A DNA stretch of 64,000 nucleotides. Source: Armatimonadota bacterium. GTDB taxonomy: Bacteria; Sysuimicrobiota; Sysuimicrobiia; Sysuimicrobiales; Kaftiobacteriaceae. The stretch spans positions 44,326 to 108,325 of the forward strand of contig JBBIUY010000006.1 in the NCBI GenBank assembly GCA_037440005.1, given 5' to 3'. Positions within the stretch are counted from its first letter, which is position 1, and each line of letters opens with the position of its first letter. Both the position numbers and the translations under genes were made by a program. The notes under the pieces are model-generated. The model was not told the DNA's origin. It saw nothing but the letters and a program-made list of their open reading frames with translations, and made no database searches. This document shows positions 39,120 to 46,110 of this stretch, one piece after another.

Positions 39120-40217
39120 TTGGTGAGCCCTATGGCGCGCGCCCTTCCCGTCCGCGGACTGACCGAGGGAGCCATCCTGGCCGCCGTGGCGGCGGTGCTG
39201 GCCCTGGCCGCCCACTACCTGCCGGTGGCCGGGGCGGCGGCGTTCTTCCTGTGCCCGCTCCCGCTGGTCGTCCTGGTGGTCCGCCACGGCCTCCGGGTGG
39301 CCGTGCTGGCCGCGGCGGTGGCCGCCGCCATCGGGACCCTGGTGGGAGGGCTGCTCATCGGCCTCAGCATTCTGGTGGCGTTCGCCCCCCTGGGCCTGGC
39401 CATGGGCTGGGCCGTGCGGCGGGGGTGGGCGGGCGGGGCGGTGTGGCTGCTGACCTGGGGCGTCGCCGTGGCCTCGGCGGTGGCCAGCGTCGGCATCGCC
39501 ATGGTGGGGGTGGGCGTGGACCCCCGCCAGGTGCTGCTGGAGACGATCCAGCAGACCCGCAGCAGCCAGGAAGCGGCGATGGGCCTGTACGCCCGGCTGG
39601 GGCTGGATACCCCGCAGGTGCGCCAGGCGGCGGAGCAGATGCAGCGGATGATGGACCTGCTGCCCCGGCTGCTGCCGCTGCTGTTCGTGCTGTCGGGCGC
39701 CCTGAGCGCCTACCTGAACCTGGTGGTCGGCCGGGCGGTGCTGCGGCGGATCCGGATCGACGTCCCGGCGCTGCCGCCGGCGTCGGCCTGGAGGCTGCCC
39801 TCCTGGTTCCTGTGGACGCTGCCGGCGGGGCTGGGCCTGCAGCTGGGAGCCTGGGCGGCGACGGTGCCGGTGCAGGTCCCCGGAGCGGTCCTGCGGCGGC
39901 TGCCCCCCGACGACGTGCGGGCGGTGCTGGCCCAGCCGGTGACCCGCTACCCCCTGCTGGAGACGCTGGGGTTGAACGTGATCATCCTCGCCCAGCTGGT
40001 GTTCTCGGCGCTGGGGCTGATCACGGCGTGGGTGCTGATGGACCGGTACCGGCTGCCGCGCTGGTACCGGGTGGTGCTGCTGGTCCTGGCCGCCGCCACG
40101 CCGGTGCTGAGCCTGGCGGTCTTAGTCCTGGGGCTGGCCGATGTGGCCTTCGACCTGCGGCGCCGATGGCGGTCGGAGACGCCAGCCTCGGGGGCGGAGG
40201 TGCGGGGAGCGCGATGA
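39120..40217 (+). CDS. yybS: DUF2232 (YybS-like) polytopic membrane protein
   Basis: About 10 TM helices. Its position between rpsR and rplI matches B. subtilis yybS. Confidence 0.7.
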   Translation: MVSPMARALPVRGLTEGAILAAVAAVLALAAHYLPVAGAAAFFLCPLPLVVLVVRHGLRVAVLAAAVAAAIGTLVGGLLIGLSILVAFAPLGLAMGWAVRRGWAGGAVWLLTWGVAVASAVASVGIAMVGVGVDPRQVLLETIQQTRSSQEAAMGLYARLGLDTPQVRQAAEQMQRMMDLLPRLLPLLFVLSGALSAYLNLVVGRAVLRRIRIDVPALPPASAWRLPSWFLWTLPAGLGLQLGAWAATVPVQVPGAVLRRLPPDDVRAVLAQPVTRYPLLETLGLNVIILAQLVFSALGLITAWVLMDRYRLPRWYRVVLLVLAAATPVLSLAVLVLGLADVAFDLRRRWRSETPASGAEVRGAR

Positions 40218-40660
40218 AGGTGGTCCTGCTGGCCGACGTGCGGGGGCTGGGTCGCGCGGGAGAGGTGGTCGAGGTCAAAGACGGGTACGCCCGCAACTAC
40301 CTGCTGCCCCGGGGCCTGGCCGCCGAGGCGACCGCGGGCCGGGTGCGGGAGATGCAGGACCACCAGCAGGCCCGCGCCCGGCGTCAGGAGCGGGAGCGGG
40401 AGGAGGCCGCGCGCCTGGCGGCGGCCCTGGAGGGGGTGGCGGTGGACCTGCGCGCCCGGGCCGGCGAGGGAGGCCGCCTGTTCGGGTCCGTCACCGCGGC
40501 CGATGTCGCCGAGGCGCTGGCCGCCCGGGGGTTTGCGGTGTCCAAGCGGCAGGTGGAGCTGGACGAGCCCATCAAGGCCGTCGGCACCTACACGGTGCCG
40601 GTGCGGATCGCCCCGGGCGTGGTGGCCCGGGTGCAGGTGAACGTGGTGGCCGCCCGCTGA
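40214..40660 (+). CDS. rplI: 50S ribosomal protein L9
   Basis: Begins MKVVLLADVRGLGRAGEVVEVKDGYARNYLLPRGLA. Confidence 0.92.
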   Translation: MKVVLLADVRGLGRAGEVVEVKDGYARNYLLPRGLAAEATAGRVREMQDHQQARARRQEREREEAARLAAALEGVAVDLRARAGEGGRLFGSVTAADVAEALAARGFAVSKRQVELDEPIKAVGTYTVPVRIAPGVVARVQVNVVAAR

Positions 40661-40698
40661 TCCGCCCCGGCGGTCGCCGCGGCGGGAGACGTGTCGCC

Positions 40699-42651
40699 AT
40701 GGGACAGCAACGGCGCATCCTGCGTCCGGTCAACCCCGTCGGCACCCTGGACAGTCGCGAGTCGCTCAAGCGCAAGGCGGCGGCGCTGCTGGGGGTGCTG
40801 GGCAGCCTGCTGGGCGCCGAGCTGGCCCGGCGCGCCGACAGGGTGGGCGCGCGGTCGCTGATGCGCAGCCGCCACCTGGGCCGGCAGGTCCTGGCCCTGC
40901 AGCGGCTCGTCTACGAGGACCCGACGCTGGCGGCGGTCCCCTCCGACGCCGAGATCCCCGCCATCCTGGAAGACCTGCAGGAGCGCATCGCGGACCTGAT
41001 GGCCCGCAAGGCCGTGGAGGACGAGCTGGAGCGGCGCGTGGCCGACCGGATGCGGGAGCGCCAGGAGGAGTACCTGCGGGAGCTGAAGATGCAGCTGCTC
41101 CGGGAGACCGGGGGAGGCGAGACCGAGGCCACCCGCCGCCGCCTGGAGGAGCTGGAGAGGTTGGAGCAGGTGCGCCTCGCCCGCACGGCCCTGGAGGCCC
41201 TGCGGCCCCGCCGGCTGTCCCAGGTGGTGGGCCAGGACCGGGCGGTGCGGTCGCTGCTGGCCAAGTTGGCCGTGCCGGTGCCCCAGCACGTGATCCTGTA
41301 CGGGCCGCCCGGCGTAGGCAAGACCACCGTCGCCCGCCTGGTCCTGGAGGAGGCCAAGAAGCTGCCGGGCAGCCCGTTCCGCAGGGACGCCCCCTTCATC
41401 GAGGTGGACGGCTCCACCCTGCGGTGGGACGCTCGGGAGGCCACCAACCCCCTGCTGGGGTCGGTGCACGACCCCATCTACCAGGGCAGCCGGAGGGAGT
41501 TCGCCGACCTGGGCATCCCCGAGCCCAAGCTGGGCCTGGTCACCCGCGCCCACGGCGGGGTGCTGTTCGTGGACGAGATCGGCGAGATGGACCCGGTCCT
41601 CCAGGCCAAGCTGCTGAAGGTCCTGGAAGACCGCCGGGTGTACTTCGAGTCGTCCTACTACGACCCCAGCAACCCGCACACCCCTGCGTACATCCGCAAG
41701 CTGTTCGAGGAGGGGGCGCCGGCCGACTTCATCCTGATCGGGGCCACCACCAAAGAGCCGGAGGAGATCAGCCCGACGCTGCGGTCGCGGTGCGCCGAGG
41801 TGTTCTTCGACCCCCTGTCCCAGGAGGACATCCAGAAGATCGTGCGGCAGGCGGCCCGGCGGCTGGGCGTGGAGATCAGCGCCGACGTCCCGCGCATCAT
41901 CAGCGAGTACACGGTGGAAGGGCGGCGCGCCGTGAACATCCTGGCCGACGCCTACGGGGTGGCTCTGTACCGCCGGCGGGGCCGGCTGGGCAACGGGGCG
42001 CGGAGGCCGCGGGTGCGGATCACCGTGCGGGACCTGCAGGAGGTCATCCGCGCCGGCCGGCTGGCCGCCAGCACCCTGGTGAAGGCGTCGGACACCCCCG
42101 AGGTGGGGCGGGTGTTCGCCCTGGGCGTGTCCCAGTACGTGGGGTCGGTGATCGAGATCGAGGCCACGGTGTTTCCGGTGGCCAGGCGCCAGAGGGGCAC
42201 CATCCGCTTCAACGAGACCGCCGGCTCCATGGCCAAGGACTCGGTGTTCAACGCCGTGTCGGTGATCCGGAGGCTCACCGGGATCGACGTGAGCGGCTAC
42301 GACATCCACGTCAACGTCATCGGCGGGGGACTCATCGACGGGCCCAGCGCCGGGCTGGCCGTGGCCCTGGCCATGCTGTCGGCCCTGCAGAAAAAGCCCC
42401 TGCGCCAGGACGTGGCCGTCACCGGGGAGATCTCCATCCAGGGCAAGATCCGGCAGGTGGGCGGGATTCCCGAGAAGATCTACGGGGCGCGCCAGGCGGG
42501 GATGCGCAAGGTCATCATCCCCGCCGAAAACCGGGCCGACGTGCCCGCAGACGTCAAGGGCCTGGAGGTGGTGTGCGTGTTCACCATCGACGAGGTGCTG
42601 CCCCACGTGTGGGCCCGGCCCTCCCGCCGGAAGGCGGGGCGGCACCCGTAG
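40699..42651 (+). CDS. Lon-like ATP-dependent protease (AAA+ module plus S16 Ser-Lys protease domain; LonB/LonC-like, no Lon N-terminal domain)
   Basis: Walker A GPPGVGKTT, Walker B LFVDEIGEMD, and the Lon protease motif DGPSAGLAVALAM. Confidence 0.85.
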   Translation: MGQQRRILRPVNPVGTLDSRESLKRKAAALLGVLGSLLGAELARRADRVGARSLMRSRHLGRQVLALQRLVYEDPTLAAVPSDAEIPAILEDLQERIADLMARKAVEDELERRVADRMRERQEEYLRELKMQLLRETGGGETEATRRRLEELERLEQVRLARTALEALRPRRLSQVVGQDRAVRSLLAKLAVPVPQHVILYGPPGVGKTTVARLVLEEAKKLPGSPFRRDAPFIEVDGSTLRWDAREATNPLLGSVHDPIYQGSRREFADLGIPEPKLGLVTRAHGGVLFVDEIGEMDPVLQAKLLKVLEDRRVYFESSYYDPSNPHTPAYIRKLFEEGAPADFILIGATTKEPEEISPTLRSRCAEVFFDPLSQEDIQKIVRQAARRLGVEISADVPRIISEYTVEGRRAVNILADAYGVALYRRRGRLGNGARRPRVRITVRDLQEVIRAGRLAASTLVKASDTPEVGRVFALGVSQYVGSVIEIEATVFPVARRQRGTIRFNETAGSMAKDSVFNAVSVIRRLTGIDVSGYDIHVNVIGGGLIDGPSAGLAVALAMLSALQKKPLRQDVAVTGEISIQGKIRQVGGIPEKIYGARQAGMRKVIIPAENRADVPADVKGLEVVCVFTIDEVLPHVWARPSRRKAGRHP

Positions 42652-42835: not shown

Positions 42836-42866
42836 TTGACGTGTTCGAACGTACGTTCGCTATAAT
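42836..42866 (+). promoter_or_regulatory. dnaB promoter with an embedded perfect Cheo-type LexA (SOS) box
   Basis: The -35-like ttgacg is at 42836..42841, the palindrome cgaacgtacgttcg at 42846..42859, and the -10 tataat at 42861..42866. The box ends 1 nt before the -10, as in the lexA promoter. Confidence 0.65.
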
Positions 42867-42895
42867 GGGCGCGCACGCCTGCCAGGAGGAGGAGC

Positions 42896-45235
42896 ATGTC
42901 GATACCGGCCGTCGCCATTGAGCGGGTGCCTCCCCAGAACCTGGAGGCCGAGCAGGGTGTGCTCGGGTCGATGCTGCTGGACCGGGACGCCATCGCCCGG
43001 GTGGTGGAGCTGATCCGGCCGGAAGACTTCTACCGGGACGCCCACCGCCGCATCTACGAAACCATCGTGGACCTGTTCGAGCGCGGCGAGCCGGTGGACC
43101 TCATCACCGTCACCGACCGTCTGCGAGACCGGGGGCAGCTGGACGACGTGGGGGGAGCCAGCTACGTCACGTCCCTGCTGCACGCCATCCCCACGGCGGC
43201 CAACGTGGAGTACTACGCCCGCATCGTGCTGCAGAAGTCCATGCTCCGCCAGCTGATCGCCGCCGGCACCCAGATCGCCCAGATGGGCTACGAGGGCGAC
43301 ACCGACGTGGAGATGCTGGTGGACCGGGCCGAGAAGCTGGTGTTCTCCATCGCCAACCGGCGGCTGGCCCAGGAGTTCGTGCCCATCCGGGAGATCCTCA
43401 AGGAGAGCTTCGAGCGCATCGACCGCCGCTACCAGGACAAGGGGACCGTCACCGGGGTGCCCACGGGGTTCGCGGACCTGGACATGCTCACCAGCGGCCT
43501 GCAGCCGGCGGACCTGGTCATCGTGGCCGCCCGCCCGGCCATGGGCAAGTGCCTGAAGTACGACAGCGAGGTGGTGGACCCGCGCACCGGCGAGGTCCGG
43601 ACCATCCAGGAGGTGGTCGGCCGGGGCGAGGCGGTCCTGTGGACCCTGGACGAGGGCGGCCGCCTGCGGACGGGGTCCCCCAGCCACTTCGTCAACGACG
43701 GCATCCGCCCCGTCTACCGGGTGCGGACCGCCTCGGGGCGGGAGGTGGAGACCACCGCCTCCCACCCGTTCCTCACGCCCGGGGGGTGGCGGCCGCTGGT
43801 GGACCTGCAGGTGGGGGAGCCCATCGCCGTGCCCGCCCGGCTGCCCGCCTTCGGCGCGCTGGACCTGCCGGCCTACGAGGTCAAGCTCCTGGCGTACCTG
43901 TGCGCCCGGGCCATGGCGACGTCCCCGGTCCTGGCCGCCGACTACGCCGACGCGGTGGCGGTCGGCGAGGCGATCCGGGCGGCCACCCGCCCCCAGCCCG
44001 CGCCCCCGGCCCGGGACCCCGTGGAACCCTTCCCGGTGCAGGGGGCGGCGGTGCCGGAGGTGGTGGGGGCGCTGCTGGCGCGGCACCCGGTGCTGGCAGA
44101 GCCGGCGGAGTCCGCCGCCCTGCCGGGCGTGGTGTTTACCCTGACCCGTCCCAAGCTGGCCCTGTTCCTGTCCCGGCTGCTGGCGTGCACCGCCGCGGCC
44201 GAGGGCGAGCCGGAGGCGCCGGTGGTGCGCTGCCGCCTGCCCAGCGCCCGCATGGCGCGCCAGTGCCAGCACCTGCTGCTGCGGTTCGGGGTGGCGGCGT
44301 CGGTGGACGGCCCGCACCTGCAGGTCCGGGGAGACCATGCCTGGAGGCTGTTCGCCCGGGTGGGCCTGCTGGGGTGGGAGCGGTGGCGGCAGCGGGCGCG
44401 GCACGAGGTCGAGAGCCTGCTGCCGGAGTCCGACGTGCTGTGGGATGTGGTGGTGGCCATCGAAGACAGCGGCGAGGCCCAGGTCTACGACCTGACGGTC
44501 CCTCCCACCCACAACTTCGTGGCCAACGACATCTGCGTGCACAACACCACCTTCAGCCTCAACATCGCCCAGCACGCGGCCATCCACCACCACATTCCCG
44601 TGGCCATCTTCAGTCTGGAGACCAGCAAGGAGCAGCTAGTGCAACGCTTTCTGTGCGCCGAAGCGGAGGTGGACGGCAGCAAGCTGCGCACGGGCTTTCT
44701 GGCCGACAGCGACTGGCCCAAGCTGGCCCGGGCCATGGGCCGGCTGTCGGAGGCGCCCATCTTCATCGACGACTCGGCCACCATCTCCGTCATCGAGATG
44801 CGGGCCAAGGCCCGCAAGATGAAGGCCGAGCACGGGCTGGGCCTGATGGTGGTGGACTACCTGCAGATGATCCAGTCCTACAAGCGCACCGAGAACCGCA
44901 CCCAGGAGATCAGCGAGATCGCCCGGTCCCTGAAGTCGCTGGCGAAAGAGCTGAACATTCCCCTCATCGCCATCTCCCAGCTGTCCCGGGCGGTGGAGGT
45001 CACCGGCACCCGGCGGCCGATGCTGTCCCACCTGCGGGAGAGCGGCGAGCTGGAGCAGGTGGCGGACCTGGTACTCTTCATCTACCGGGAGGATTACTAC
45101 AATCCGGATACGGACAAGAAAAACATCGCCGAGATCATCATCGCCAAGCACCGCAACGGACCCATCGGCACCGTGGAACTGTACTTCCACAAGGAGTTCA
45201 GCCGGTTTGCCAACCTGGACCGCCGCCGCGTCTGA
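42896..45235 (+). CDS. dnaB: Replicative DNA helicase DnaB interrupted by an in-frame intein
   Basis: The DnaB N-domain is followed by AARPAMGK (Walker A), which is interrupted; extein sequence resumes TTFSLNIAQH and continues to LRESGELEQVADLV and beyond. The total of 779 aa compares with about 445 aa expected. Confidence 0.93.
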   Translation: MSIPAVAIERVPPQNLEAEQGVLGSMLLDRDAIARVVELIRPEDFYRDAHRRIYETIVDLFERGEPVDLITVTDRLRDRGQLDDVGGASYVTSLLHAIPTAANVEYYARIVLQKSMLRQLIAAGTQIAQMGYEGDTDVEMLVDRAEKLVFSIANRRLAQEFVPIREILKESFERIDRRYQDKGTVTGVPTGFADLDMLTSGLQPADLVIVAARPAMGKCLKYDSEVVDPRTGEVRTIQEVVGRGEAVLWTLDEGGRLRTGSPSHFVNDGIRPVYRVRTASGREVETTASHPFLTPGGWRPLVDLQVGEPIAVPARLPAFGALDLPAYEVKLLAYLCARAMATSPVLAADYADAVAVGEAIRAATRPQPAPPARDPVEPFPVQGAAVPEVVGALLARHPVLAEPAESAALPGVVFTLTRPKLALFLSRLLACTAAAEGEPEAPVVRCRLPSARMARQCQHLLLRFGVAASVDGPHLQVRGDHAWRLFARVGLLGWERWRQRARHEVESLLPESDVLWDVVVAIEDSGEAQVYDLTVPPTHNFVANDICVHNTTFSLNIAQHAAIHHHIPVAIFSLETSKEQLVQRFLCAEAEVDGSKLRTGFLADSDWPKLARAMGRLSEAPIFIDDSATISVIEMRAKARKMKAEHGLGLMVVDYLQMIQSYKRTENRTQEISEIARSLKSLAKELNIPLIAISQLSRAVEVTGTRRPMLSHLRESGELEQVADLVLFIYREDYYNPDTDKKNIAEIIIAKHRNGPIGTVELYFHKEFSRFANLDRRRV
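43550..44545 (+). mobile_element. DnaB intein (332 aa) inserted in the P-loop, with Hint domains and a central, apparently degenerate endonuclease-like region
   Basis: Starts with Cys (CLKYDSEVVDPRTGEVRTI, block A), has block B TTASHPFLT, and ends VYDLTVPPTHNFVANDICVHN followed by Thr at +1. Central LAGLIDADG-like motifs lack the acidic residues (LLAYLCARA, LALFLSRLLA). Confidence 0.85.
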
Positions 45236-45237
45236 CC

Positions 45238-46110
45238 GTGGACGCCGCCTTCGCCCTGCTGTCGGCCGCCCTGTTCGCCGGCAACGCCCTGTGCGTACGG
45301 CTGGGCCTGCGGGGGTCCACCGCCACCACCGCCACCCTGCTGTCGGTGGCGACCAACCTCACCGCCCTGTGGGCGCTGGCGGCGGCGCGGGGGTCTCTGG
45401 CGCGGATCGCCCACCCGGCGGCGGGGGTGTTCCTGCTGGCGGGCATGTTCGCGCCCGCGCTGGCGCGGCTCACCTACTATGAGAGCCTCACCCTGATCGG
45501 GGTCGCCCGGGCGGCCACCATCAGCAACACCACGCCGCTGTTCTCGGCCCTGCTGGCGGTCCCCGTCCTGGGAGAGCGCCTGAACTGGCGGATTGCCGCC
45601 GGCACCGTCCTGGTGGTGGCCGGGGTGGTGCTGGCGGTGCGCCAGGCGAGCGAGCCGGGCGCGGGGCGGGCAGCGGGCTCCTCGGGGGTGTCGGGGGCGC
45701 TGCTGGCCCTCAACACCGCCGTGATGGCCAGCATCTCGTTCATGCTGCGCAAGATCGGGCTGCGGATGCTGCCGGACCCCGTGCTGGGAGCGGCCCTGAC
45801 GGTCACCGGCTCGCTGCTGGTGCTGCTGCCCTATGCCGCCTCCCGCTGGAGGCGGGAGCCCCTGCGGGCGGACCGGCCCAGCCTGGGGTGGCTGGTGGCG
45901 GGCGGGCTGCTGACCACCGGGGGGTTTTTGGCCTACTACCTGGCCCTCCACCTGGGGGACGTGGTGCGGATCACCCCTCTGTCCAACACCACGCCCCTGT
46001 TCGCCGTGGCCCTGCTGTACGCGTTCCGGCAGGTGGAGACGGTGGCGCCCGCCACTGCCCTGGGGGCGGTGCTGGCCGTGGCGGGGGTGCTGCTGGTGGC
46101 GACCGGCTGA
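45238..46110 (+). CDS. EamA/DMT-family transporter
   Basis: Ten TM helices in two EamA repeats. The GTG start lies just after the dnaB stop. Confidence 0.75.
   Translation: MDAAFALLSAALFAGNALCVRLGLRGSTATTATLLSVATNLTALWALAAARGSLARIAHPAAGVFLLAGMFAPALARLTYYESLTLIGVARAATISNTTPLFSALLAVPVLGERLNWRIAAGTVLVVAGVVLAVRQASEPGAGRAAGSSGVSGALLALNTAVMASISFMLRKIGLRMLPDPVLGAALTVTGSLLVLLPYAASRWRREPLRADRPSLGWLVAGGLLTTGGFLAYYLALHLGDVVRITPLSNTTPLFAVALLYAFRQVETVAPATALGAVLAVAGVLLVATG

Follow-up and report, generated by a model that had tools for sequence, protein, structure and literature searches.

The dnaB Locus and Its Insertion

The window, that is, the whole 64-kb stretch of DNA analyzed here, carries a dnaB gene encoding the replicative helicase and interrupted in frame by an intein (Table 1). 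The DnaB domains are readily recognized in profile searches (Pfam DnaB N-terminal domain, 130 bits; DnaB_C, 338 bits; TIGR00665, 580 bits). The insert comprises exactly 332 aa (precursor aa 219-550), begins with TGC (Cys), ends with CAC AAC (His-Asn) and is followed by ACC (Thr). It lies between the Lys and the Thr of the Walker A motif, AARPAMGK/C...VHN/TTFSLNIAQ, where slashes mark the junctions. Joining the exteins without the insert gives a 447-aa DnaB with the Walker A sequence AARPAMGKTTFSLNIAQ, which aligns without gaps to the intein-free DnaB of related MAGs (L002, AARPSVGKTTFCVNIAQ; L003, AARPAVGKTTLSLNIAQ); in both of these, GKT is intact. The original prediction had placed a 332-aa insert across the DnaB Walker A at 43550-44545, and the ORF, the junction codons and the extein alignment show this to be exact to the base.

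The gene occupies the canonical rplI-dnaB locus, and the order DUF2232, rplI, Lon-like gene, dnaB is kept in relatives, as judged by tblastx synteny. Site b is the published name for the P-loop position in DnaB, and site a that for the position in the H4 motif (PMC4760082, PMC6195587). The insertion studied here separates the Lys from the Ser/Thr of GK(S/T) in the DnaB ATPase domain and is therefore at site b; the H4 motif of the same gene is uninterrupted (RESGELEQ). HMMs of both Hint lobes, run against all six-frame ORFs of the window, matched dnaB only, and no further inteins were found there.

TABLE 1. Features of the intein-containing dnaB gene, in window coordinates.
Feature	Position	Strand	Remarks
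dnaB precursor ORF	42896..45235	+	779 aa plus stop; replicative helicase, in-frame intein
N-extein, aa 1-218	42896..43549	+	Walker A end ...AARPAMGK
Intein, 332 aa, class 1, DnaB site b (P-loop)	43550..44545	+	PF14890, TIGR01445, TIGR01443, AF2, Foldseek
Hint N-lobe, intein aa 1-101	43550..43852	+	Aligns with Ssp/Npu DnaB mini-inteins over aa 6-101; predicted beta strands
Block A Cys1	43550-43552	+	Codon TGC
Block B T69ASH72	43754-43765	+	Aligned with block B of Ssp and Npu DnaB inteins
Central degenerate LAGLIDADG endonuclease domain, intein aa 102-285	43853..44404	+	Homology to same-site relatives; Foldseek; dN/dS 0.32
First LAGLIDADG helix, block C, aa 108-120 (...LLAYLCAR)	43871..43909	+	Alignment A1; model helix 108-119
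Pro/Ala-rich low-confidence segment, aa 147-169	43988..44056	+	Sits where first-half beta strands belong; pLDDT 55-63; dN/dS 0.52
Second LAGLIDADG helix, block E, aa 200-214 (KLALFLSRLLACT)	44147..44191	+	Alignment A1; model helix 200-214
Hint C-lobe, aa 286-332	44405..44545	+	Aligns with Ssp/Npu DnaB mini-inteins over aa 286-332; TIGR01443 match
Block F (VYDLTVPPTHNF)	44483-44518	+	V312YDLTVPPTHNF
Block G NDICVHN	44525-44545	+	Ends His331-Asn332
C-extein, aa 551-779	44546..45235	+	First residue Thr+1 (44546-44548)

The Splicing Domain

Three intein profiles match the insert above their curated cut-offs: Pfam Intein_splicing PF14890 (82 bits against 35.8, E 5e-23), TIGR01445 intein_Nterm (38.2 bits against 24.5) and TIGR01443 intein_Cterm (30.1 bits against 15.6). 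The set of class 1 splicing residues is complete, with Cys1, T69xxH72, the block F Asp and His, the terminal His-Asn and Thr+1. The original prediction had recognized intein blocks A, B, F and G in the letters and had proposed a comparison with intein profiles; Cys1, T69ASH72, V312YDLTVPPTHNF, NDICVHN332 and Thr+1 are all where it saw them, and the profiles agree.

By sequence, the nearest solved structures are those of the Ssp and Npu DnaB mini-inteins (E 1e-21 to 3e-22); these align with both Hint lobes, between which the central 184 aa form an insertion. The AF2 model of the intein (pLDDT 93.2, pTM 0.90) predicts a Hint fold around a LAGLIDADG-type domain. Foldseek returned the endonuclease-associated TliVMA and PhoVMA inteins as best full-length matches (E 1.7e-14 to 2e-11, TMq 0.62-0.68), followed by PI-PfuI, PI-TkoII and PI-SceI, with matches to mini-inteins restricted to the Hint part (TMt 0.8-0.9). 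Mini-inteins have no endonuclease domain and total about 130-200 aa; here a folded 184-aa domain separates the Hint lobes.

The Central Endonuclease Remnant

Both LAGLIDADG-like helices are found in the central domain (LLAYLCARA and LFLSRLLACTAAA). At the catalytic columns of alignment A1 the intein has Arg120 where active homologues carry Asp or Glu, and Thr214 where they carry Asp, in agreement with the original description of a LAGLIDADG-like center devoid of acidic catalytic residues. Pfam LAGLIDADG_3 (PF14528) scores 14.8 bits, under its cut-off of 22.5, compared with 50-88 bits in same-site relatives that have LAYLIGDG and LFATDGW motifs. The homology is nevertheless evident: the domain matches the intact one of the same-site relative P0011 (BLASTP E 5e-12), and its structural matches in Foldseek are the TliVMA and PhoVMA inteins, PI-PfuI and PI-SceI. 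About half of the aligned relatives retain both LAGLIDADG aspartates: of the 30 relatives with a residue in the first column, 15 have Asp or Glu, and 20 of 42 have Asp in the second. These motif states were counted from alignment A1; a regular expression run over the 120 listed matches gave false positives in the exteins.

In the AF2 model, the stretch from one LAGLIDADG helix to the other (aa 120 to 214) contains no beta strands. The second half-domain (aa 200-271) is predicted to have the alpha-beta-beta-alpha-beta-beta-alpha topology. With a strandless first half, the predicted structure lacks the DNA-binding saddle made by two half-domains. A large deletion of the first endonuclease half was considered and rejected, as the helices are 94 aa apart compared with 99-104 aa in intact relatives lacking an extra HTH insert; the first half was lost through sequence degeneration and small deletions. 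Because Arg120 and Thr214 stand at the catalytic columns, the first-half sheet has degenerated and LAGLIDADG_3 remains sub-threshold, the homing endonuclease appears, on sequence and model, to be dead, and neither DNA cutting nor homing would be expected of it.

Distribution Among Relatives

All four close relatives (L082, L083, L085, and L086) carry the intein, whereas the genomes next in proximity, L002 and L003, lack it and have an uninterrupted P-loop; an empty allele in related strains, which the original prediction had suggested looking for, therefore exists. N-extein identity is 95% to L082 and 72-75% to the intein-free L002 and L003. MAGs labeled Bacillota supply the nearest intein-free DnaBs, and a near relative is labeled an Armatimonadota MAG. 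Among the matches listed, at least 101 of 120 relatives are inserted at the same P-loop site, as judged by a C-junction of the form xVHN/T or xVHN/S followed by Walker A-downstream sequence, and the +1 residue is Thr in 98 of these 101 listed same-site relatives. Outside the immediate clade, same-site relatives share 30-65% identity. The family includes sister sequences from which a large part of the central domain has been deleted (P0008/P0009), as well as a sister lineage that retains Glu at the first catalytic column (P0001, P0003). HLLLR is the sole nearly invariant stretch of the family alignment, members with a dead active site included.

In L085 and L086, dnaB is called as two genes. 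A natural split intein or a pseudogene was considered and rejected for these genomes, since the breaks are scaffold gaps inside the intein: translation shows a run of N in L085, and N plus a frame change in L086. A phage source of the intein is likewise unsupported, as viral contigs gave only distant inteins (~27% identity) in other host proteins.

Selection and Composition

Between the window and L082, dS is 0.34 for the exteins, 0.35 for the Hint domain and 0.35 for the central domain. The intein has therefore diverged together with its host gene, which argues against recent transfer. The corresponding dN/dS values are 0.10, 0.18, and 0.32; that of the central domain is significantly lower than 1 (Fisher p 1e-6) and higher than that of the exteins (p 3e-7). 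Within the central domain, dN/dS is 0.18 for helices, 0.44 for loops and 0.77 for strands; all of the dN/dS estimates are mainly pairwise Nei-Gojobori counts at a GC3 of ~0.95, and the sub-regions consist of few codons (17 for the strands). Not one nonsynonymous change occurs, at dS ~0.35, in the 39 codons of the three core helices (the LAGLIDADG pair plus QHLLLRFG). The central domain is thus under purifying selection rather than drifting freely, and its helical core is frozen. The decayed homing endonuclease of the original prediction stands as far as catalysis and the DNA-binding sheet are concerned and does not extend to this core.

The G+C content of the intein is 75.6%, compared with 63.5-68.8% in the exteins. 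Recent horizontal acquisition, which this difference might suggest, was rejected because GC3 is extreme throughout (0.92-0.97) and dS is equal in intein and exteins. The gap lies in GC1 and GC2 and reflects the Ala/Arg/Pro-rich composition of the central domain. The host belongs to an uncultured lineage of ~72% GC.

Proposed Splicing Route and Homing History

The reading that best accounts for these data as a whole, and in our judgment very probably the correct one, is a canonical class 1 intein at the known site b of chromosomal dnaB, with a dead endonuclease. By the standard class 1 pathway, dnaB would be translated as a 779-aa precursor in which Cys1 undergoes an N-S acyl shift. Thr+1 would then attack the thioester in a trans-esterification, Asn332 would cyclize with the aid of His331, and an O-N shift would restore the GKT peptide bond, yielding the 447-aa DnaB and a free 332-aa intein. 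Thr+1 is thus predicted to double as the Walker A Thr and the splice nucleophile. Of the three residues permitted as +1 nucleophile, Thr reacts least readily, and for that reason splicing of the dnaB precursor could be slow or conditional.

The unspliced precursor would presumably be an inactive ATPase and helicase because 332 residues split its ATP-binding loop. A P-loop intein is expected to keep its host protein from acting as an ATPase until splicing has taken place (PMC6195587), and helicase activity that depends on splicing is what the position of the insert and the analogy with other P-loop inteins suggest here. As for its history, on this reading the intein descends from a mobile P-loop intein family with a LAGLIDADG homing endonuclease and has reached, in the window lineage, the degeneration stage of the homing cycle, following fixation in the clade. 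The remnant is most probably kept as a folded scaffold, clean folding being needed for Hint splicing inside an essential protein.

Alternative Readings

Retention of the remnant for a function of its own, either as a splicing scaffold (mutualism) or as a module for DNA binding or sensing through which DnaB maturation becomes conditional, is possible, though we consider it doubtful. The central dN/dS significantly below 1, the unchanged LAGLIDADG and QHLLLRFG helices, the HLLLR stretch that persists family-wide even where the active site is dead, and the equal length of the intein in the window and L082 would all fit such a role. Selection against misfolding in an essential protein, however, predicts an identical dN/dS pattern. 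In active LAGLIDADG enzymes the strands are the DNA-contact surface; the near-neutral evolution of the predicted strands here, together with the loop value of 0.44 and the lost first-half sheet, is therefore evidence against retained DNA recognition. Moreover, the large deletion in P0008/P0009 means that at least one relative can do without the domain. Precedents do exist for both versions of this idea. Hint-endonuclease mutualism is an established concept documented in the TliVMA and MvuTFIIB inteins (PMC8966425), and conditional splicing has been documented in a mycobacterial P-loop DnaB intein (PMC6195587).

A more specific proposal is that the dead scaffold and C329 have been co-opted, making splicing, and with it DnaB activation and replication, dependent on redox state, metals or temperature. 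C329, the fourth residue from the end in block G (ICVHN), is found in 81 of the 101 same-site relatives among the matches listed. We regard this as improbable. If it were true, the remnant would be maintained for regulation and not just tolerated, and conditional splicing, so far shown for the class 3 mycobacterial P-loop intein, would extend to the larger class 1 P-loop family.

It is very unlikely that the endonuclease is still active through non-canonical catalytic residues and the intein still mobile. The LAGLIDADG-type fold, modeled with high confidence in the second half-domain, and the Glu at the first catalytic column of the sister lineage (P0001, P0003) are compatible with activity. 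However, both metal-binding positions are non-acidic, the first-half beta-sheet is absent, LAGLIDADG_3 falls far below its scores in intact relatives, and the equal dS of intein and exteins speaks against recent transfer. The PhoVMA intein, in which the same aspartates are missing, was inactive in experiment until they were regrafted (PMC8966425).

Even less credible is an insert that does not splice, whether as a lineage-specific DnaB domain, a retained Hint-like remnant, or part of a pseudogene with another helicase doing the work. A second dnaB may lie outside the visible 64 kb, but the splice-junction residues are all intact, purifying selection acts on the Hint lobes and strongly on the exteins, and the genomic position is the canonical one next to rplI. 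Moreover, 332 residues within GKT are incompatible with a working P-loop, as follows from what is known of Walker A motifs and from PMC6195587, and the site is uninterrupted in nearby lineages. The original prediction had set against itself an insert without a Hint fold and conserved in all relatives; profiles and model indicate a Hint fold, and L002 and L003 are insert-free. Finally, a class 3 intein that splices via a block F Cys, like mycobacterial DnaBi1, shares this insertion site (PMC6195587) and is nonetheless ruled out by the motif test, as the WCT triplet that defines the class (PMC6195587) is missing: position 1 is Cys and not Ala, block B TxxH is followed by P-F with Phe in place of the Trp two residues after the His, Asp314 occupies the position of the block F Cys, block G reads C-V-H-N and not T-H-N (Val330 at the Thr position), and the nearest PDB sequences are class 1 DnaB and RecA inteins.

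Comparison With Known Inteins

DnaB is the most frequent intein-bearing bacterial protein, with 317 inteins in a 2015 count (PMC4760082). The closest known systems are the site-b class 1 DnaB inteins with a LAGLIDADG endonuclease (Novikova et al., 2016; PMC4760082), which share with the window intein the host protein, the GK/T site, the Cys1...HN/Thr+1 junctions and homologous Hint and endonuclease domains. Those surveyed include inteins from Cyanobacteria and Actinobacteria, and Demetria terragena DnaB has Thr+1 (PMC4760082). The window intein differs from them in lacking both LAGLIDADG aspartates and in its degenerate first-half sheet. A similar state is seen in the Pyrococcus horikoshii VMA intein (PDB 7QST), which likewise consists of a Hint domain with a nested endonuclease, lacks the block C and block E Asp and has kept the architecture (PMC8966425). 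PhoVMA ranks in the top three of the Foldseek matches (E 2e-11, TMq 0.62). In PhoVMA, the endonuclease domain is dispensable for splicing. It differs from the window intein in its host protein, an archaeal V-ATPase, and in its insertion site, and has only ~16% identity to it.

The Synechocystis and Nostoc DnaB mini-inteins (PDB 1MI8, 4O1R, 6FRG) reside in the same host protein, and their blocks F and G (...VYDLTVP..HNFVANDI.VHN) are nearly identical to those of the window intein. In contrast, they occupy site a (RESG/S in H4) and have Ser and not Thr at +1; in the crystallized forms the endonuclease has been removed. Conversely, the Mycobacterium smegmatis and M. leprae DnaBi1 inteins share the P-loop site exactly, and the P-loop is likewise expected to be disrupted until splicing (PMC6195587). 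These are class 3 mini-inteins that have a WCT triplet, Ala1, a block F Cys nucleophile and +1 Ser, and have no endonuclease.

The intein described here is real but ordinary: a well-known type of element at a well-known site, and one more among hundreds of DnaB inteins. For annotation, its value is that the locus should be read as one intein-containing dnaB gene rather than as a helicase that is fused, split or aberrant. The frozen helical core and the near-neutral predicted strands fit retention of a scaffold after loss of DNA recognition. Together, the homologous DnaB P-loop inteins form a natural homing-cycle series at a single site, from intact, through dead but folded (the window), to partly deleted (P0008/P0009).

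Host Gene and Insertion Site

The translated dnaB ORF, taken from the ORF listing of the window, reads ...VIVAARPAMGK/CLKYDSEVVD... and ...FVANDICVHN/TTFSLNIAQH... across its two junctions (slashes mark splice points), and encloses an insert of exactly 332 aa whose boundaries in the DnaB Walker A motif are precisely those of the original prediction. Without the insert, the protein has 447 aa and a canonical Walker A motif (AARPAMGKTT), and the joined exteins align without gaps to the intein-free DnaB of L002 (AARPSVGKTTFCVNIAQ) and L003 (AARPAVGKTTLSLNIAQ), contigs from the nearest genomes within the species-representative collection. By its profile scores (Pfam DnaB N-terminal domain, 130 bits, and DnaB_C, 338 bits; TIGR00665, 580 bits), the host protein is clearly recognizable as a replicative helicase. 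The gene order DUF2232, rplI, Lon-like protease, dnaB, EamA, M3 peptidase is kept among relatives. Long Gly/Arg/Pro-rich ORFs also overlap dnaB and the intein in other frames, including the two listed in the table, and were rejected as genes, being typical stop-codon-poor artefacts at approximately 72% GC.

Features of the dnaB locus and its intein (window positions, unless marked as intein residues, aa, or prefixed by the contig of a relative)
Feature	Position	Strand	Remark
dnaB ORF	42896-45235	+	779 aa
Intein	43550-44545	+	ORF residues 219-550
Codon of Cys329	44534-44536		block G, ICVHN
Lon-like AAA+/S16 protease gene	40141-42651	+	between rplI and dnaB
Segment collinear with L002	38133-40610		upstream
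Alternative-frame ORF	43549-46110	+	853 aa
Alternative-frame ORF	42860-44593	-	577 aa
First LAGLIDADG helix	aa 108-119		model
Helix	aa 126-146		model
Low-confidence stretch	aa 147-169		model
Helices	aa 170-183		model
Second LAGLIDADG helix	aa 200-214		model
Beta-beta-alpha-beta-beta-alpha unit	aa 215-271		model
Orthologous dnaB called as two genes	L085:1657-4092
Orthologous dnaB called as two genes	L086:1802-4209
DnaB interrupted in motif H4	L003:1930-1962		DASUDA010000005.1, contig end

A Class 1 Intein With a Nested Domain

Searched alone, the insert exceeded the cut-offs of three intein profiles: Pfam Intein_splicing with 82 bits against 35.8 (E 5e-23), TIGR01445 with 38.2 bits against 24.5, and TIGR01443 with 30.1 bits against 15.6. 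Cys1 and T69-x-x-H72 (block B) form the N-terminal side of the class 1 splicing set, block F (VYDLTVPPTHNF) holds Asp314 and His321, and block G ends in His331-Asn332, followed by Thr at +1; all the predicted motifs (Cys1, TxxH, terminal HN, Thr+1) were therefore found, with profile scores above cut-off for the proposed Hint fold. The residue set is complete for a canonical class 1 mechanism. Class 3 inteins, which include a mycobacterial intein at the same site, are marked by the absence of a position-1 nucleophile and by a Trp/Cys/Thr triplet (PMC6195587); the signature positions here are Cys1, Phe, Asp, and Val, and this class was rejected.

Among sequences of solved structure, the top matches were the DnaB mini-inteins of Synechocystis and Nostoc (E 3e-22 to 1.7e-21); their alignment is split between intein aa 6-101 and aa 286-332, and the 184 residues in between are therefore additional to a minimal Hint domain. 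An AlphaFold2 model, built from A1, a 48-sequence alignment of same-family inteins, was very confident (mean pLDDT 93.2, pTM 0.90) and placed beta strands in residues 1-95 and 296-331, as in a Hint domain. In a Foldseek search of the PDB, the best full-length matches were the endonuclease-associated TliVMA and PhoVMA inteins (7qsu, 7qss, 7qst; E 1.7e-14 to 2.1e-11, query-normalised TM 0.62-0.68), followed by PI-TkoII (2cw7), PI-PfuI (1dq3), and PI-SceI (1dfa and others), while mini-inteins (1mi8, 4o1r, Mtu RecA) matched the Hint part only (target-normalised TM 0.8-0.9). From this topology and these matches, the modelled architecture is that of a LAGLIDADG-type domain nested in a Hint domain.

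DnaB is the commonest bacterial intein host, with 317 inteins counted in 2015, and three insertion sites have been named in it, the P-loop being site b (PMC4760082). Every sequence and fold feature that defines class 1 inteins at this site is present in the element, which does not qualify as an active LAGLIDADG endonuclease, a class 3 intein, or a mini-intein. The original interpretation as a DnaB intein stands, with two refinements: its insertion point is the published site b, and its dead endonuclease is a selectively maintained fold. A P-loop intein was shown to block ATPase activity until spliced in Pyrococcus horikoshii RadA, and the same is assumed for mycobacterial DnaBi1 (PMC6195587). 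By intein chemistry and the cited work, the P-loop could not form in the present precursor, where the Lys and Thr of GKT lie 332 residues apart; a four-step class 1 reaction by Cys1, Thr+1, and Asn332 would regenerate GKT, with Thr+1 becoming the Walker A threonine.

Probable Loss of Catalysis in the Central Domain

Under the homing-cycle model, intein endonucleases degenerate once fixed. The motifs LAYLIGDG and LFATDGW occur in database relatives such as P0011, P0013, and P0016, whose scores on the Pfam profile LAGLIDADG_3 are 67-88 bits. The central region aligned by BLASTP to P0011 in each of the two motif regions (E 5e-12 and 0.003), and on LAGLIDADG_3 it reached only 14.8 bits, under the cut-off of 22.5. 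At the first catalytic Asp column of A1, 15 of the 30 relatives with a residue there have Asp or Glu, and at the second 20 of 42 have Asp; the window intein has Arg120 and Thr214. The segment replacing the first-half strands of intact members is Pro/Ala-rich (RAATRPQPAPPARDPVEPFPVQ), with no predicted strands and low confidence. A large deletion was rejected, as the motifs lie 94 aa apart, near the 99-104 aa of intact members without an extra HTH insert. Sequence and model together indicate an endonuclease that is catalytically dead and partly degenerate, in agreement with the decay, and the missing acidic residues, originally proposed. The same kind of degeneration is found in the PhoVMA intein, which has lost both active-site aspartates but retained its architecture, as described and experimentally tested; retention of the scaffold through a Hint-endonuclease mutualism was proposed and tested in the same work (PMC8966425).

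Selection and Composition

Between the window and the related contig L082, dS was 0.34 in the exteins, 0.35 in the Hint lobes, and 0.35 in the central domain, indicating that intein and host gene diverged together. The corresponding dN/dS values, which describe a trend rather than precise quantities (pairwise Nei-Gojobori, GC3 ~0.95, small counts), were 0.10, 0.18, and 0.32; the central-domain value lay significantly under neutrality (Fisher p 1e-6), and constraint there was significantly weaker than on the exteins (p 3e-7). Within it, dN/dS was 0.18 in predicted helices, 0.44 in loops, and 0.77 in predicted strands (17 codons only), and across the 39 codons of the QHLLLRFG helix and both LAGLIDADG helices there were 10 synonymous changes and no nonsynonymous one. 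The trend is towards a conserved helical scaffold and a near-neutral former DNA-contact surface.

The intein has 75.6% G+C, versus 63.5-68.8% in the exteins; the excess lies in the first two codon positions, and Ala, Arg, and Pro make up 20%, 10%, and 10% of the central domain. Recent import is not indicated as its source because GC3 does not differ between intein and exteins, and such a composition is consistent with prolonged residence, under relaxed constraint, in a genome of high GC.

Relatives and the P-Loop Family

Four related metagenomic or MAG contigs share this intein, its insertion site, and its dead motifs. Identities to the window (N-extein/C-extein; intein) were 95%/94%; 85% for L082 and L083, 91%/93%; 84% for L085 (GCA_031459735.1, labelled Armatimonadota), and 85%/91%; 65-73% for L086; L084 gave 68% (C-extein only) and 53%. 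In L085 and L086 dnaB was called as two genes in the public assemblies. The breaks fall inside the intein, at a run of N in L085 and at N plus a frame change in L086, within its Pro/Ala-rich, very GC-rich centre; a split intein was rejected, these being scaffold gaps and an assembly/annotation artefact.

The empty allele sought in relatives exists: the next nearest DnaBs, from L002 (a Bacillota MAG) and L003, have an uninterrupted P-loop (extein identity 72-79%), and upstream collinearity identifies L002 as the orthologous rplI-dnaB locus. The Lon-like protease gene is also present in L082, L083, L085, and L086, and was not found at the collinear rplI-dnaB locus of L002. Its mechanical ORF exceeds the called gene (650 aa) by ~190 codons on the upstream side, across a Gly/Arg-rich stretch; this extension is probably a high-GC artefact. 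In L003, DnaB is interrupted in motif H4 (...MLSHLRE/CVTGDTLVLLS), two residues upstream of the classic RESG/S site a, probably at site "c" of PMC4760082; its P-loop being empty, the two sister lineages have inteins at different dnaB sites.

Against a collection of 5.8 billion proteins, the intein matched 136 at E <=0.001. At least 101 of the 120 matches listed share its C-terminal junction (xVHN followed by T or S and DnaB post-Walker A sequence), 98 of these 101 with Thr at +1, and the family sharing this site spans Cyanobacteria, Acidobacteria, Chloroflexota, Actinomycetota, Gemmatimonadota, and others. Cys occupies the fourth-from-last position (Cys329 here) in 81 of the 101 listed P-loop inteins; in DnaB inteins at site a, that position is mostly Val or Ile. 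We know of no role assigned to this block G cysteine, and it could be relevant to redox-sensitive splicing. That the endonuclease remnant or this cysteine has been co-opted for regulation, making DnaB maturation conditional, appears improbable.

Many cyanobacterial and other DnaBs have two inteins, at the P-loop (..VHN/T) and at H4 (..VHN/SIEQDAD), for example P0022, P0024, P0027, P0031, P0039, P0040, P0042, and P0044. Because their blocks F and G are highly alike (F[VI]ANDI.VHN) and the solved inteins closest to the window Hint lobes are site-a, the sequences suggest a common origin of the class 1 DnaB inteins at sites a and b. Distant relatives (~27% identity) on the viral IMG/VR contigs L089, L091, L095, L096, L098, L104, and L106 directly follow Walker A-like ...GK or ...AK (e.g., VKKGK/CVTGDTRVLL) in host proteins other than DnaB, which looks, from sequence, like a further case of related inteins targeting a P-loop, here in phage ATPases.
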